From a virus: 64,000 bases of DNA. Positions 4,249 through 56,008 of this stretch are shown one piece after another. Numbering within the stretch: position 1 is the first letter of the stretch; every line of letters begins with the position of its first letter. The notes under the pieces are model-generated. The model worked only from the letters and a program-made list of their open reading frames with translations. It was not told where the DNA came from and searched no databases. The stretch is taken from the UHGV virus genome UHGV-1351408, one strand, 5' to 3'. The translations under genes were made by a program, and so were the position numbers.

Positions 4249-4513
4249 AGTATTGAAGGTACGGCAACAACTCTTTTACCTGTTCTTGATTGAGCTTCAT
4301 TCTTTGATTACCTACAAAATCTTTACCTACTAATGCTGGGATATCAAGTGTTTTCCAGCCATTATCTAGGTACTGAACAGAGACCTCTTTAGCACCTAAC
4401 CATATACATGGTTCATATGATGAACTCTCTTGTAAAGTACAAATTTCCCCTTTAGCATCTTTAAATTCTGCATAAGAAAATCCACGATTTGTTGGCTGGA
4501 ATTGCATAATCAT
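4199..4513 (-). CDS. Hypothetical protein (104 aa)
   Basis: ORF in a tightly packed minus-strand array. Confidence 0.45.
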   Translation of the reverse strand: MIMQFQPTNRGFSYAEFKDAKGEICTLQESSSYEPCIWLGAKEVSVQYLDNGWKTLDIPALVGKDFVGNQRMKLNQEQVKELLPYLQYFAENGELPTEELTNAD

Positions 4514-41986: not shown

Positions 41987-42247
41987 ATGAAAATTGAACA
42001 CTGTTATGAGTCTGATGGGACACCTATCCGATGCCCACATTGTGGATGTACAGACTTGCAAGGTGAAGTTCATGTGATTGTTAATGGTAACATAGCTGAA
42101 GAGAGTACTACATGTGTTGGTTGCGGTGAGCATCTATCATTCTGGGCTTATGGTTCATACCAACCTACACCACACTTAATCTACCACAGCAATAAAGCTG
42201 TGAAGAGTGTTATCAACTGGTTCATTAATAAAGGGTTTATAAAATGA
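41987..42247 (+). CDS. Small zinc-ribbon protein
   Basis: CPHCGC ... CVGCGEH cysteine pairs. Confidence 0.45.
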   Translation: MKIEHCYESDGTPIRCPHCGCTDLQGEVHVIVNGNIAEESTTCVGCGEHLSFWAYGSYQPTPHLIYHSNKAVKSVINWFINKGFIK

Positions 42248-42789
42248 TTAAATTAATCTTCGCAAGTGGTGAAAATGGTGAATTTGGTACTCCAACTGGT
42301 ATGCCGTGGCCTCGACATAAACAGGATATGCAAGAGTTTAAGAGGCTCACTAAAAACAACTTAGTAGTGATGGGTAATGAGACTTTTAAGACTCTGGGGA
42401 GTAAACCTTTACCAGAACGTGCAAACCTAATCTTAACAAATTCTGTACCATATTTAGGCATAGACTTTGGCAAAGATGATATAATGTATGCTAAGGCCAC
42501 TAAAGAGTCATTTGGAGCATTTTTGAAGTATCTTGATAGCTCTATTGATGAAGATGTCTTTGTAATTGGTGGTGCAGGTGTTCTTGTTAATGCTTTACCG
42601 TATGCTGATGTAGTGTTCCATACAGTTTTCCATAAAGTTACTGAAGAGGTCACTGTGTATTTACCTTTTGAAAACTTCTTCGATAAACTGTATGATAACC
42701 GTGTATTTGCAAAGGTGCAGTCAAGACCCTCAGATGATGGTAAAGCAACCTTTGAAATCTATGTTCCACAAGTAAAAGGCCACTTTTGA
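42244..42789 (+). CDS. frd: Dihydrofolate reductase
   Basis: N-terminal MIKLIFA ... GMPWP ... and LVVMGNETFKTLG match DHFR signatures; immediately upstream of thymidylate synthase. Confidence 0.8.
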   Translation: MIKLIFASGENGEFGTPTGMPWPRHKQDMQEFKRLTKNNLVVMGNETFKTLGSKPLPERANLILTNSVPYLGIDFGKDDIMYAKATKESFGAFLKYLDSSIDEDVFVIGGAGVLVNALPYADVVFHTVFHKVTEEVTVYLPFENFFDKLYDNRVFAKVQSRPSDDGKATFEIYVPQVKGHF

Positions 42790-42790
42790 T

Positions 42791-43690
42791 ATGTCACAAG
42801 CTGATTTGAGTTACAAAAATATCCTGAACCATGTTTTATCCGTTGGTGAACTGCGTACTACACGAACTGGAGATGTTATCTCTGCATTTGCTCCACCACA
42901 ATTTCGTTTTGATATGCGTACTGGTTTCCCACTCTTAACATCTAAACAGGTGTTTACACGGCAAGTTATTGGGGAAGCTTTATGGTTCCTGAATGGTGAG
43001 AATAAACTTGGTGAACTTCGTTACCGTACTTGGGGTGAAAATGATGGGGAACGCTGGACTATCTGGTCAGATGATTTTAAACGCTGGTTGAGTTCTAATT
43101 ATTCTTCTGAACAAGACTGGTTAGAGGATGCAGGTGGGAGAATCTACGGAGTTCAGTGGAGAAACTTTGAAGGTCATAATGGTTGTGTTGTAGACCAGTT
43201 AGAAACCTTAGTAACGAAGATGAAGGGTGATATCACAGACCGTTACATGCTTGTTAATGCTTGGAATGCAGCAGATATTGCAGCAAACTCAATGGCTCTA
43301 GCACCTTGTCATGTTCTGTTTCAGATTTATATTACTAACGAGGGTGAAGTTGACTTACAATGGTATCAGCGTTCAGTAGACACCTTTTTAGGACTTCCGT
43401 TTAATATTGCATCTTATGGTTTTATTCTGGAAGTTCTTTGTAAGATGACTGGATACACTCCACGGTACTTGATAGGTGTCTTTGGGGATACTCAGATTTA
43501 TCAGAATCATATGAAGCAGGTTTATGAACTGATGAACAATGAAGAGTTCCATGCACCAACTTTTGAGATTGGTATCCCACTTAACACTTTAAGTGACTTA
43601 AAACACCTCACTGCAAGTGACTTTATCGGTGGTATTAACAATTACCAACATGCAGGAAAGATTGAAGCACCTTTGTCAGTAGGTAAATAA
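42791..43690 (+). CDS. thyA: Thymidylate synthase (ThyA family)
   Basis: Catalytic LAPCH, then QWYQRSVDTFLGLPFNIASY and GDTQIYQNH. Confidence 0.8.
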   Translation: MSQADLSYKNILNHVLSVGELRTTRTGDVISAFAPPQFRFDMRTGFPLLTSKQVFTRQVIGEALWFLNGENKLGELRYRTWGENDGERWTIWSDDFKRWLSSNYSSEQDWLEDAGGRIYGVQWRNFEGHNGCVVDQLETLVTKMKGDITDRYMLVNAWNAADIAANSMALAPCHVLFQIYITNEGEVDLQWYQRSVDTFLGLPFNIASYGFILEVLCKMTGYTPRYLIGVFGDTQIYQNHMKQVYELMNNEEFHAPTFEIGIPLNTLSDLKHLTASDFIGGINNYQHAGKIEAPLSVGK

Positions 43691-43726: not shown

Positions 43727-44098
43727 TTACTTTTCAGTATTCTTTGTGTTCTTTTCAGTAATAGCTTGGAGGGCTGATACTGATTGAGCCAGATTGTTCA
43801 CACTATCAGAGAATTTATCAAGAGTCTTAGTAAGTTTTGCGTTCTCACCCTTAACATTCTCTAACTGGACTTTCTGGTTCTCCATCCCTAGCTGAAGCAG
43901 CCTCATATCAGACTGTAAATCACGAATAGCTGAATAATTACTTTTGGAATAATTATCTAACTGCTGTAACTTTGTTGTGATAGACACTTCTTGCTTACCA
44001 TCCGAGACTTGCATGGTGGTATACATACCAATAACACTAAAAATACCAACTACAATTGCACCAATATTATTTTTAAAAGCTTCCTCTAGCCACTTCAT
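43727..44098 (-). CDS. Membrane-anchored coiled-coil protein
   Basis: One N-terminal transmembrane helix (IGAIVVGIFSVIGMY), then a long helix-prone domain. Confidence 0.4.
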   Translation of the reverse strand: MKWLEEAFKNNIGAIVVGIFSVIGMYTTMQVSDGKQEVSITTKLQQLDNYSKSNYSAIRDLQSDMRLLQLGMENQKVQLENVKGENAKLTKTLDKFSDSVNNLAQSVSALQAITEKNTKNTEK

Positions 44099-44292
44099 TT
44101 ATTCTCCCCCTTAAAAGCTTTTTCTAAGTTATCTACGAACTCATCATCAATAGGTGTGTCTGTTTTACTCGCAAGGTATCTTGCAAGCCTAAAGAACACT
44201 TTCTCAATCATGTATTCACTTAGAAGGGATAAAATGAGTTTCCAGAAGAAGCTACCTAGATTTTTTAGAAGAATTGCTAGGATTGTAGGCAT
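44095..44292 (-). CDS. Small membrane protein (holin-like, speculative)
   Basis: 65 aa, one hydrophobic helix, charged C-terminus; overlaps the downstream gene. Confidence 0.35.
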   Translation of the reverse strand: MPTILAILLKNLGSFFWKLILSLLSEYMIEKVFFRLARYLASKTDTPIDDEFVDNLEKAFKGENK

Positions 44293-44371: not shown

Positions 44372-46756
44372 TTAAGCAGTTCTTACCCAAGCCATTAACT
44401 TGTAGAACTGGTTAGTAACACTAAATGCCGAACCAGAACCTGTACTACCAGTATTACCACTAACTGTGTGGCTGTGAGCACCAATGCCTACAGAGTGGGA
44501 ATGGTTACCAGCACCACTTGTAGTACCAGACCATGTGTGTGTATGGTTACCAGTTGTGTTAGTGTTAGGGAACTTGTTATCAGTTCTGTCAAGCCAGTCA
44601 AGAGTTCTTGTCTTATTGTTACCAATAGTGGTATATCCGTACTGAGCATCACCACCATTAACCAATAGCAGACCTAAGTGGTGAGCGTGGTTACCAGCAG
44701 CACTTGTTGTACCACTTACAGAGTGAGTATGACCACCAGTGCTATTAGTACCCTTCGTACCATAATCAAAAGATGAAGTGGTAGCAGAGAAACTGTGAGT
44801 GTGTGATGGTAAGTTACCAACAGCTAACGTTACAGAATCTGAACCACCAGTTGTAGCAACATCTGAACCATTTGCTGCTGCGATTCTGATAGTTCTACCA
44901 ACACCATTGTTCAGGTATGTCCAAGTTAGACCAGGAAGTGCTGTATTAGGGTTAACATTACTGTTAAACCACGTTACAATACCAACTGGGTAGATTTTAT
45001 TAAGGTCTGTAGAGTCACTTACTGCCTGTGCAATCTTCTGGTCAGTCTCAGCTTTAGTGTATGCACCGATATCTGAAGGGGTTGGTTTAAAATCAGTTGT
45101 GTAAAGCTGTGCCTCTCCGGCATAGTCACCATTTTTGTCATAGGCATAGGTGAATGTTGCCAAACCATTTGAACCGTATACAAAAGAGATACCCCTTGCA
45201 TGTGCAGCAGACTTATTAGAGTGAGCAACATGAATTGCCAACTCTTTCAGACCACTAGTCACACTGTTGTTTCTGACAAAACCTGAATACCCAAGATTAA
45301 ATGCTGAAGGGTTTTCAAGATTATCTACAGATACAGTCATCAAGGATTGATTTAATAACTGAGTCTTAACAAAGTATCTAGCATCTAAGTTAGACCAATC
45401 AGATGGCTGAACTTGACCAGTAATGGTTAGATTCTTATTAGCCTTAATCACTGAAGTCCCAAGAGTAATTTGAGTGCCAGAGAAACTATTGTTTAAGGCT
45501 ACATCAGTAGAATTTGTGCCACCCACACCTACCCACCATCTAGATACATTCGCAGTATCAACACCACGGATATATTGTGGCTGCCCCTGTGTTAAGTTCC
45601 TTAATACTACGCCTTCATTATTTGATACAATAGTTTGCACATTCACAAATGTGTTAGCAACATTAAGTTTAGGTAGGTTACTCAAAGTTGCGGCTGGGAT
45701 GTATCTAGAGTCAATGTTAGCCCAATCTGAAGGTTGAACTTGACCACCAATTTGGACTGTTCTGCTCATGGTAATGGTGTTACCTAGTGAGATTTGTGTT
45801 CTTGCTAAATAGTTATAGATGTTTACAATGTTCTCATCACCGTCATTACCAATGTACCACTTATTAGTTCCATCTGATTTTCTTGCTTGGATATACAAAG
45901 CAGCAGTTGTATCTACATTTTGCAGAGTAATAGCATTAGCATTCTTCTTAACAACAAAATTAGTGAAAATATTAGAGCCACTAAATGTGTTATTACCAGC
46001 TAACTGTGCAAATCTCTGGTTAGCTTCTGTTTGAGTAAAATATCTAGCATCCAAGTTAGCAAAACTTGATGGCTGAACTTGACCAGCAATTTGAAGAGTC
46101 CTGTTGACTGTTACTAAATTTCCCAAAATAGCAATTGAAACGTCAGTCTTGACATTCTTTAACACAAGGTTGTCTGTGCCTTTATTATCATTACCTAGAT
46201 ACCACCTGTTAGTACCGTCTGCATCTTGACCACGAATATATAGCGGCATTCCTTGTGTAATGTTCTTAACAATAAGAGCTTCATTATCAGAGAGGATAGC
46301 TTGAGTACCTCTAAATGTGTTATTTACAGCTAATCTTGCATATCTTGCATCATTCTCTTCATTAGTTCTCATCCCAAGTTCATTAGGACTTGGTTTATTC
46401 AGAGTATGGTAAACAGTTGCTGACCTTGAAGCATCTGCAATAGTTAGCTTAAGACCATTTGAGTTGATTTTAAAAGACTTTAAAACATCTCCGATATTAA
46501 TCTCAGAAGAGCCTGTTGGGTCAAATACTGTCTTACCACCATAAAGTAACTTAACAATTCCTAAGTCACCTGCCATAGTGCTACCAGCAATCTGAACAAA
46601 TCTCTCAAGTTTAAAAGATGCTAAGAAGTCTTGATAGGTCATTCGACGGTCTTCATCACCCAGCATTTCAGGTCTCTTTTTAACTCTGACATGAAGAAGG
46701 TCATCTGAACGGATTGTGTCGATTGAGTTTAATTCACTCAACTTGTAATCTGCCAT
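44372..46756 (-). CDS. Tail fiber protein (long) with His-rich HxH-repeat C-terminal tip
   Basis: 794 aa, Thr/Asn/Gly-rich; C-terminal [44 protein letters not shown] repeats; follows the baseplate genes. Confidence 0.7.
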
Positions 46757-46769
46757 TATAAATTTTCCT

Positions 46770-46800
46770 CTTAAAAGGGGCTATAAAGCCCCTGTAAAGA
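46770..46800 (-). terminator. Stem-loop between the two tail-fiber genes
   Basis: GGGGCT-loop-AGCCCC hairpin followed by UUUU and the RBS AAGAGGAAAA. Confidence 0.4.
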
Positions 46801-46802
46801 AA

Positions 46803-47990
46803 TTAAGCTGTTCTCTGCCATACATACAGTACGAATGATGGCTGCTCAATGTTGAAAGCTTGTCCACCACCAACACTGTTAGTGTTTCCGCTATGTGTAT
46901 GCTCAGAAGAAGAAACTGTCACAGTACCGTTGTGTGTATGTGAACCAATACCAACTGTATGGCTATGAGCACCAATACCCACTGTGTGATTGTGGTTACC
47001 GGTTGTGTTAGTGGTAACGCTAAAAGAGTGGGTGTGCGAACCAGCGACTTCGCAGACAGCATCTGCTGAGTACCACGATTGGTCATTCCTTGTAGACCAA
47101 ACCATTGCAGGTCTTTCCGACAGACCACCACCTGCTTCATAAGTCAATCTGTGGTTGTGAGCACCAGCAGCACTTGTTGACCCACTACCAACGTGATTGT
47201 GGTTACCAGTTGTGTTAGTGGTCTTTGTTCCATAGTCAAAAGAGTTGGTAGTCTTAGTTCCATAGTCAAAAGCTGAGATTGAAACAGTTGCATTATGAGT
47301 GTGACCACCACCACTGAGAGACACAGAGTGTGAGTGTTGAGGCATATTATTAACTGACAAAGTGACAGTTGAAGCACCAAATACAGAACCTGCTGGCCTT
47401 GTATCAGAGTCATAACCAACCAATGCCCTACCTTTTGAAACTAACTCCCAAGTACCTCCACAAATTAAGTATGTAGAAGGATTTGCAGAGTTCATAGAAA
47501 GATGGATAGTACCTACTGGATAAGAAGCCTGAACAGCCTTGTACAAGTTATTTACTGCTCTTGCTGTAGCATACTTATCTGCATCTTCGTTATACAGATT
47601 AGATGTTGTCCAGTTCTGGACATTACTTAAACCAACCTGTGCCTTAGTTGTATTGTGTGGGTTACTCTTGTCCTTAATATGTTGCTGAACAAGGTTATTA
47701 ACCTCTTCTGAAGACATAATCTGTAGATTTGCTCTTGCCTCAGCTACATTAACAATATCTGATAAGTTATTTGCAGCAACTAACTGAAGAGCATTAATAA
47801 CATTATCTAAACCAATTTGTGTCTTAGTAACACCATGAGGGTTATTTTTTAGGCTTGAGTGTGGAGCAAGTAATTGCTCAAGAGTACATCTCTTATCCTC
47901 AATACCCTGCTTAAGATGGAAGATATCACTAAGGTCAATTGGTAAGGCTGCTTGAGGCAAGGCACTAATTTGAATTTCACCTACTGCCAT
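46803..47990 (-). CDS. Tail fiber protein (short paralogue) with HxH-repeat C-terminus
   Basis: 395 aa; C-terminal [42 protein letters not shown] and an ending (FVLYVWQRTA) similar to the long fiber ([11 protein letters not shown]). Confidence 0.65.
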   Translation of the reverse strand: MAVGEIQISALPQAALPIDLSDIFHLKQGIEDKRCTLEQLLAPHSSLKNNPHGVTKTQIGLDNVINALQLVAANNLSDIVNVAEARANLQIMSSEEVNNLVQQHIKDKSNPHNTTKAQVGLSNVQNWTTSNLYNEDADKYATARAVNNLYKAVQASYPVGTIHLSMNSANPSTYLICGGTWELVSKGRALVGYDSDTRPAGSVFGASTVTLSVNNMPQHSHSVSLSGGGHTHNATVSISAFDYGTKTTNSFDYGTKTTNTTGNHNHVGSGSTSAAGAHNHRLTYEAGGGLSERPAMVWSTRNDQSWYSADAVCEVAGSHTHSFSVTTNTTGNHNHTVGIGAHSHTVGIGSHTHNGTVTVSSSEHTHSGNTNSVGGGQAFNIEQPSFVLYVWQRTA

Positions 47991-47992
47991 TA

Positions 47993-56008
<8,016 letters not shown>

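Follow-up and report, generated by a model that had tools for sequence, protein, structure and literature searches.

What would a phage do with two adjacent tail fibers of unequal length that end in the same histidine-rich tip, and which part of such a tip touches the receptor? This question is raised by positions 44372-47990 of the virus genome UHGV-1351408, of which 64,000 nucleotides (nt), hereafter the window, were analyzed. Two adjacent open reading frames (ORFs) on the minus strand fill these positions exactly, one at 46803..47990 encoding 395 amino acids (aa) and one at 44372..46756 encoding 794 aa. On their sequences, we identify them as the short tail fiber (STF) and the long tail fiber (LTF), respectively, of a Felix O1-like myovirus of the genus Felixounavirus. 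The window DNA has 93-96% nucleotide identity to E. coli felixounaviruses such as LF82P9, ECML-1, and ECP2307, and the order of genes in the fiber module, which runs from baseplate wedge 2 (489 aa) and wedge 1 (287 aa) through a 100-aa protein, the STF, the LTF, and two small ORFs to thymidylate synthase and dihydrofolate reductase (DHFR), is identical in Felix O1 and in genes 23-31 of Bas63 (MZ501086). The STF is the ortholog of Bas63 gp26 (75% identity over the full length), Felix O1 gp76, and VpaE1 gp74, and the LTF is the ortholog of Bas63 gp27 (62% identity over the full length), Felix O1 gp77, and VpaE1 gp75. In the PHROGs database, the STF belongs to the tail fiber family phrog_2097 (E 2.3e-137) and the LTF matches phrog_4277 over its full length. 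We consider it highly probable that both members of this STF/LTF pair carry a fold-back tip of the T4 gp37 type, that the motifs of two histidines separated by one residue (HxH) in these tips are structural, that specificity is borne by a head segment, and that the two fibers have two ligands.

The original prediction, which was made from the letters of the DNA, described dense HxH repeats and similar final residues in both fibers, with N-terminal and central parts that are unlike, and this description is accurate throughout. The STF contains nine HxH motifs (aa 219, 230, 264, 278, 319, 333, 342, 351, and 364) and the LTF contains six (aa 652, 676, 690, 738, 752, and 761); shuffled versions of the proteins had means of 1.38 and 0.38 motifs, respectively, and the observed counts were reached in 0 of 20,000 shuffles. 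The motif strings GNHTHTW (LTF aa 736-742) and GAHSHTVSG (LTF aa 759-767) and a 25-residue string at STF aa 331-355 are all present. BLASTP aligned LTF aa 562-794 with STF aa 136-395 at 34% identity (E 2e-24) and gave no significant alignment of the N-terminal and central parts of the two proteins. The C-terminal ends read ...LMAWVRTA in the LTF and ...LYVWQRTA in the STF, so that W-x-R-T-A is common to both. The observation is correct but ordinary, as the feature has already been published for Felix O1, VpaE1, and Bas63. In the Felix O1 genome paper of 2010, the C-termini of gp76 and gp77 were both reported to resemble T4 gp37, and both proteins were found in the proteome, gp76 with a coverage of only 9% (PMC3185647); the Felix O1 GenBank record annotates both fibers as 'putative tail fiber protein GP37'. 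In VpaE1, described in 2015, gp74 (aa 146-362) and gp75 (aa 584-780) were found to be homologous to the T4 adhesin, and proteomics identified both fibers as virion proteins (PMC4690856). The cryo-electron microscopy study of Bas63 (Sci Adv 2025), in which gp26 was named STF and gp27 LTF, located both on the virion and described their shared collar, HxH needle, head, and fold-back chain, the last observed at domain level, with a count of the di-histidine motifs and a note on the variability of the tip (PMC12609058).

The kinship of the two tips with that of T4 gp37 is evident from several comparisons. In phmmer searches of the PDB, the T4 gp37 tip (2XGF) was matched by STF aa 146-367 (E 2.6e-26) and by LTF aa 650-774 (E 5.2e-22), and full-length T4 gp37 was matched by the STF at E 1.6e-27 and by the LTF at E 8.4e-23. 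The suggestion that these are receptor-binding fiber tips of the T4 type is therefore well founded. For the comparison of motifs, the STF and LTF tips were aligned with T4 gp37 residues 785-1026, the part crystallized as 2XGF, which contains seven HxH motifs (883, 915, 929, 966, 980, 989, and 998). The six LTF motifs are in register with T4 motifs 1-6, and the STF motifs at aa 219, 264, 278, 319, 333, 342, and 351 are in register with T4 motifs 1-7, the motifs at aa 230 and 364 being extra. Both fibers also have in common with T4 gp37 an FDYGTK motif and a terminal AF...R.A strand. In the T4 tip, Fe ions are coordinated by the HxH motifs (summarized in PMC12609058, citing Bartual 2010). The T4 chain reverses its course in a small head that contacts the receptor, so that the needle is a six-stranded barrel (PMC12609058). 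The alignment of the motifs of both fibers with the seven iron-coordinating motifs of T4 supports the original prediction's reading of the HxH repeats as metal-coordinating motifs of the T4 type.

By analogy with T4 gp37 and with the Bas63 orthologs, each fiber would be a homotrimer with its conserved N-terminus on the baseplate and its gp37-type tip at the far end. From the collar, the chain is predicted to run down a thin beta-barrel needle to the distal head and back up again, which would place the C-terminal W-x-R-T-A near the collar. The HxH side chains would face the core of the needle, where three chains would give six histidines per metal site (Fe in T4), and their role would be structural, in rigidity, register, and stability, and not in receptor contact. 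Homology predicts six such sites in the LTF and nine in the STF, that is, T4's seven and two collar-proximal ones. Since the chain folds back, the receptor-contacting head is expected to be the HxH-free stretch midway along the tip sequence and not the C-terminus, which appears by the same analogy to be a conserved structural strand. It had been proposed that the histidine-rich C-terminal end is the receptor-binding surface; this part of the original prediction was not supported, as the HxH needle is by homology the structural core. Specificity would then reside in the HxH-free head (STF aa 281-318 and LTF aa 693-737), which is hypervariable and is exchanged as a cassette among felixounaviruses. 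It is documented in the literature that felixounavirus receptors are lipopolysaccharide (LPS) or other glycans, not proteins. The two fibers most likely recognize two different surface-glycan (LPS) features, and engagement is probably sequential, with the LTF sampling first and the STF engaging second.

The layout of the STF, which like all features described here for the two fibers lies on the minus strand, fits this plan. An N-terminal baseplate-binding region with helix-turn motifs and a repeated NPHxxTKxQ[IV]GLxNV occupies aa 1-153 (47532..47990); its identity to Bas63 and Felix O1, taken in bins of 20 aa, is 90% or more, and it contains helices in the AlphaFold2 (AF2) model. It is followed at aa 154-218 (47337..47531) by a collar domain of the Gp10_C type, for which Pfam PF21939 matches aa 154-261 above the cutoff (E 1.4e-18), and which aligns with both the T4 gp37 collar and the C-terminal domain of T4 gp10 and has a predicted local distance difference test score (pLDDT) of ~80-89 in the AF2 model. 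The descending needle strand, with the HxH motifs from aa 219 to 278, covers aa 219-280 (47151..47336). The predicted head, distal, receptor-contacting, and HxH-free, covers aa 281-318 (47037..47150); its counterpart in the alignment is the head segment of T4 gp37, which lies between HxH 929 and 966. The ascending needle strands cover aa 319-395 (46806..47036, pLDDT 74-91), with the motifs from aa 319 to 364, and end in the C-terminal strand ...FVLYVWQRTA. The two extra motifs, at aa 230 on the descending strand and aa 364 on the ascending strand, adjoin the collar-proximal motifs, so that a longer needle is predicted. In the AF2 monomer, which has a mean pLDDT of 67.7, the collar can be recognized, along with two long sets of antiparallel strands (aa 222-272 and 321-369) and a C-terminal strand modeled with confidence; the head has a pLDDT below 50.

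The LTF is built in the same way behind a much longer shaft. Its conserved N-terminal region at aa 1-140 (46337..46756), predicted to bind the baseplate or platform, has an identity of 0.93-1.0 over 120 orthologs and is essentially identical in Felix O1 and Bas63. Three shaft repeats of ~110 aa of the gp37_trimer / beta-helix type span aa 141-470 (45347..46336), where Pfam PF20744 matches in three stretches (E 3.8e-59) and where the DNA contains the repeat family D4 with spacings of 327 and 339 nt. A further shaft domain ahead of the collar, at aa 471-585 (45002..45346), has weak similarity to gp37_C (PF12604, E 0.0029, below the curated cutoff), and from this region onward phmmer aligns T4 gp37 residues 750-1002. 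The collar domain at aa 586-650 (44807..45001) aligns to the T4 gp37 collar and is 0.99 conserved in orthologs, for many of which a PF21939 match is precomputed. The descending needle strand at aa 651-692 (44681..44806), with HxH 652, 676, and 690, leads to the predicted receptor-contacting head at aa 693-737 (44546..44680), a variable cassette, and the ascending strands at aa 738-794 (44375..44545), with HxH 738, 752, and 761, end in the invariant C-terminal strand.

The pattern of conservation in 72 STF orthologs and 120 close LTF orthologs agrees with a head-borne specificity. In the STF, conservation is lowest at aa 281-318 (identity to the query 0.22-0.44) and reaches ~0.8 in the collar and in the 15 C-terminal residues. 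The HxH motifs at aa 219, 230, and 351 are invariant and those at aa 278 and 319 are kept in at least 96% of the orthologs; by single residues, His 219/221 and 230/232 are invariant and His 278/280 are conserved at 96-97%. In the LTF, there is essentially no variation in the collar, in any of the six HxH motifs, or in the 14 C-terminal residues, which are 100% conserved, and the head has the lowest conservation within the tip (0.76 at aa 701-720). Against Felix O1 and Bas63, identity is 0.95-1.0 in the collar, only 0.15-0.2 in the head (LTF aa 701-740), and once more 0.95-1.0 over the final 35 residues, and this drop and return mark the head as a cassette with sharp boundaries. The variation is mosaic: of the 23 STF orthologs with N-termini at least 95% identical, 11 have a head identity below 50%. 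The minimum of conservation at the head, between a conserved collar and a conserved C-terminal strand, supports its reading as the receptor-contacting part. The number of HxH motifs ranges from 6 to 11 among the STF orthologs (mode 9; 7 in Bas63), and it is 6 in 120 of 120 LTF orthologs; it appears that the STF needle is polymorphic in length. LTF shaft repeats 1-2 have an identity of 0.6-0.7 among close orthologs and are thus more variable than the head. The identity of the shaft shows either no correlation or a negative one with that of the tip; for repeats 1-2 the correlation is negative (r -0.3 to -0.46), which indicates that shaft and tip are separate recombination modules. Variability of both shaft and tip was also reported by the authors of the Bas63 study, to whom that of the shaft was unexpected (PMC12609058).

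The two heads were compared with each other within each of 29 genomes, namely the window, Bas63, Felix O1, and 26 loci from IMG/VR (numbered with the prefix L); six loci gave no parsable STF and LTF pair. The head was defined as the longest HxH-free gap, a rule that sets the head wrongly for STFs of the Bas63 type and for L032, L035, and L037, so that the low identities of these are not meaningful. Most genomes have unrelated heads on their two fibers, including Bas63, subject to its misplaced boundary, and the window, where the STF head of 38 aa and the LTF head of 45 aa are 18% identical. The combinations vary. The window-type STF head is paired with one LTF head in L009, L011, and L012 and with another in L010, a second STF head is found beside an LTF head of the 'RISQGDNANV' kind or beside one that resembles that of T4 gp37 (L014 and L015), and L036 has a Felix O1-type head on the STF only. 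On these sequences, the STF and the LTF reassort their head cassettes independently of each other throughout the genus. The LTF head of L014 and L015, YIEAWNGTG(R/A)GG(D/S)KMSSYAV(S/A)YR(T/A)..., is ~88% identical to the T4 gp37 head, and this indicates that head cassettes are also exchanged between T-even phages and felixounaviruses.

Several points weigh against the explanation given above. The match of the LTF collar to PF21939 (E 7.5e-5, 24.1 bits) lies under the 27-bit cutoff. The AF2 monomer of the LTF, modeled with 33 close orthologs, has a mean pLDDT of 41.6, and its tip is unusable, only the shaft repeats reaching ~70-80. Foldseek did not recover 2XGF when the STF monomer was compared with the PDB, where it gave no match at E <= 1e-3; it returned only the C-terminal (collar) domain of T4 gp10 at a probability of 0.8-0.9 and generic long beta-hairpin pore proteins. 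This failure is expected when an intertwined trimer is modeled as a monomer, and we count it neither for nor against. The Bas63 fiber-tip chain was not found in PDB searches with either fiber, and the density of the Bas63 fibers is too weak for side chains (PMC12609058), so that the metal sites of felixounaviruses are predicted ones only. With regard to ligands, the Felix O1-like Salmonella phages (Felix O1, L021, L022, and L028) carry the same head on both fibers, at 81-100% amino-acid identity (94% in Felix O1), with the common sequence GG[RH]YGGDSIGGK.RVQ.SGT.Q.SS.AG. The STF and LTF genes of these genomes share a DNA block of 195-270 nt at 80-91% identity (blastn), with a gap-free core of 207 nt at 87% in Felix O1 (AF320576; L008; locus positions 1845-2051 versus 4304-4510); in L028, the block is 200 nt at 91%. 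The same head together with a shared block of DNA points to an exchange in which the paralogous tips of a single genome took part. Dual specificity is unlikely in Felix O1, given its one head, and is not a general property of the pair; in the window phage, the dissimilarity of the heads is the one feature that speaks for two different ligands. The dual or alternative specificity put forward in the original prediction is thus plausible for the window phage and improbable for Felix O1.

The state of Felix O1 raises the question of whether the two tips are redundant, in the sense that both fibers bind the same LPS epitope and the two lengths serve reversible and then irreversible binding to one receptor. 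Felix O1 and its three relatives, with near-identical heads and a common block of DNA, would fit such an arrangement, and they indicate that a one-head state is viable in the genus; the window heads, with little identity and different lengths, do not fit it, nor does the occurrence of the window-type STF head beside two different LTF heads, which argues that the heads evolve independently. We regard redundancy in the window phage as unlikely, though it is the likeliest of the alternatives. A different history, in which a recent tandem duplication with domain swapping in the window genome itself made both tips, had been offered in the original prediction, and it would account for two adjacent, co-oriented genes with homologous C-terminal modules, the more so as exchange between paralogs within one genome is evident in the Felix O1 clade. 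However, the tip DNA of the two window genes matches at 75-78% at most over stretches no longer than 81 nt (the best being 81 nt at 75%), and over the 199 columns common to the three tips the STF and LTF are 48% identical, the LTF and T4 gp37 46%, and the STF and T4 gp37 40%. Separate orthologs of both fibers are present in Felix O1, Bas63, and the ~29 surveyed Felixounavirus-type genomes, and STF orthologs occur across the Ounavirinae, including distant phages of Erwinia, Hafnia, Pectobacterium, and Citrobacter; for L038-L041, the most distant loci, parsing gave no LTF partner of the gp37 type. On these sequence comparisons, the duplication is old, each tip being roughly as distant from the other as from T4 gp37, and a recent origin is very improbable. 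Domain swapping stands for the genus, where heads reassort between the fibers and exchange is evident in the Felix O1 clade, and does not stand for the window genome.

Two further alternatives concern the nature of the shared region itself. Were the HxH richness a product of chance or of compositional low complexity, with no structural meaning, it would be at home in a region that is repetitive and rich in Gly, Ser, Thr, and His, but such an origin is next to impossible in view of the shuffling result, of the T4 gp37 register of the motifs, and of their invariance in orthologs amid varying neighbors. A C-terminal region that serves as an intramolecular chaperone, is removed by cleavage once the trimer has formed, and is absent from virions has many precedents, since a self-cleaving S74 chaperone domain ends many phage fibers and spikes, among them the endosialidases and the T5 L-shaped fiber. 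The gp37 tip of T4 needs both gp38 and gp57A as chaperones. No homolog of either was found in the window, which is a part of the genome, by phmmer at E <= 10 over all ORFs of at least 40 aa, and some folding aid is therefore unaccounted for. The window fibers resemble the S74-type fibers in being, as predicted, trimeric with a conserved C-terminal module; they differ in that neither protein matches Peptidase_S74 (PF13884) at E <= 0.01 and in that their C-terminus belongs by homology to the mature fold. In the alignment, the terminal strand falls on the C-terminus of T4 gp37, itself a part of the mature tip crystallized as 2XGF (785-1026), the last 14 aa are invariant in the LTF orthologs, as expected of a packed structural strand, and the chain of Bas63 has been traced back to the collar in virions (PMC12609058). 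A cleaved chaperone, which the original prediction had named as the finding that would overturn it, has accordingly only a slight chance of being the explanation, and we retain the fold-back gp37-type tip.

Bas63 (Escherichia phage JohannRWettstein) is among the closest known systems. It has the same gene order from wedge 2 to DHFR, including the 65-aa and 123-aa ORFs and thyA, and the N-termini, collars, and C-terminal strands of its fibers are near-identical to those of the window. Its head segments are different cassettes, its STF has 7 HxH motifs versus 9, without equivalents of those at aa 264 and 278, and its LTF head is ~14 aa shorter than that of the window. T4 gp37 is alike in its sequence of collar, needle, and head and in the register of 6 of its 7 HxH motifs with the LTF and 7 of 7 with the STF. 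It differs in the heads, in the two extra STF motifs, in the seventh motif, which the window LTF lacks, and in that its tip stands on a four-protein jointed fiber, whereas the window tips stand on two much shorter, baseplate-attached fibers. The pairs gp76/gp77 of Felix O1 and gp74/gp75 of VpaE1 are orthologous to the window pair, the Felix O1 heads being far more alike than those of the window. The short tail fiber gp12 of T4 has a single Zn site coordinated by HxH. As a shorter, second-stage fiber in which a collar-type domain is combined with a histidine-bound metal, gp12 offers a functional analogy to the STF; no gp12 chain was found in the PDB search with the STF at E <= 1, which returned only gp37 and gp10 chains. 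The Bas63 authors described the Bas63 STF as structurally unlike T4 STFs and as resembling a truncated LTF (PMC12609058).

The genes around the two fibers are also conserved. Upstream of the STF, the 100-aa protein (47993..48295, minus strand; phrog_4141) is by position and length the putative ortholog of Bas63 gp25 (bas63_0025), for which a role as the LTF platform has been described (PMC12609058). Directly downstream of the LTF are the 65-aa ORF (44095-44292, minus strand; phrog_402) and the 123-aa ORF (43727-44098, minus strand; phrog_4038), both conserved in Bas63 (gp28 and gp29) and Felix O1. Both begin with a hydrophobic stretch near the N-terminus, and a coiled-coil-like region with a weak match to DivIC is present in the 123-aa protein. 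These two ORFs occupy the place of gp38 and the holin in T4. It is possible that they have a role in lysis or fiber assembly, as no recognizable holin-lysin cassette was reported in the Felix O1 genome paper (PMC3185647). Genes for DHFR (42244-42789) and thymidylate synthase (42791-43690) adjoin the fiber module on the opposite strand. A scan of the window for tRNA genes found none, and since Felix O1 encodes 22, the window must exclude the tRNA cluster. The GC skew (the strand asymmetry of G and C) of the window reverses at about 32 kb and again at about 44 kb, which matches the switch of gene strand.

In practical terms, these results are of value for annotation and engineering. The specificity segments would be the short head cassettes at STF aa 281-318 and LTF aa 693-737, and the conserved HxH needle flanks on both sides would be natural junctions for recombination and for engineering, at which the host range of Felix O1-like therapeutic and diagnostic phages might be retargeted. 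The survey of head pairs provides a small lead, open to testing, as to how members of the genus build their host range, with one head on both fibers in some phages and two unrelated heads in others, the window phage among them. We tentatively propose, as a possibility that is still doubtful, that across the genus the two fibers are a two-slot system for interchangeable head cassettes, an idea for which a limited literature search found no statement. If such a system is real and functional, phages might differ in host breadth according to whether they have a one-head or a two-head configuration; the near-universal range of Felix O1 on Salmonella might follow from one conserved LPS-core ligand, and the coliphages might have dual specificity.

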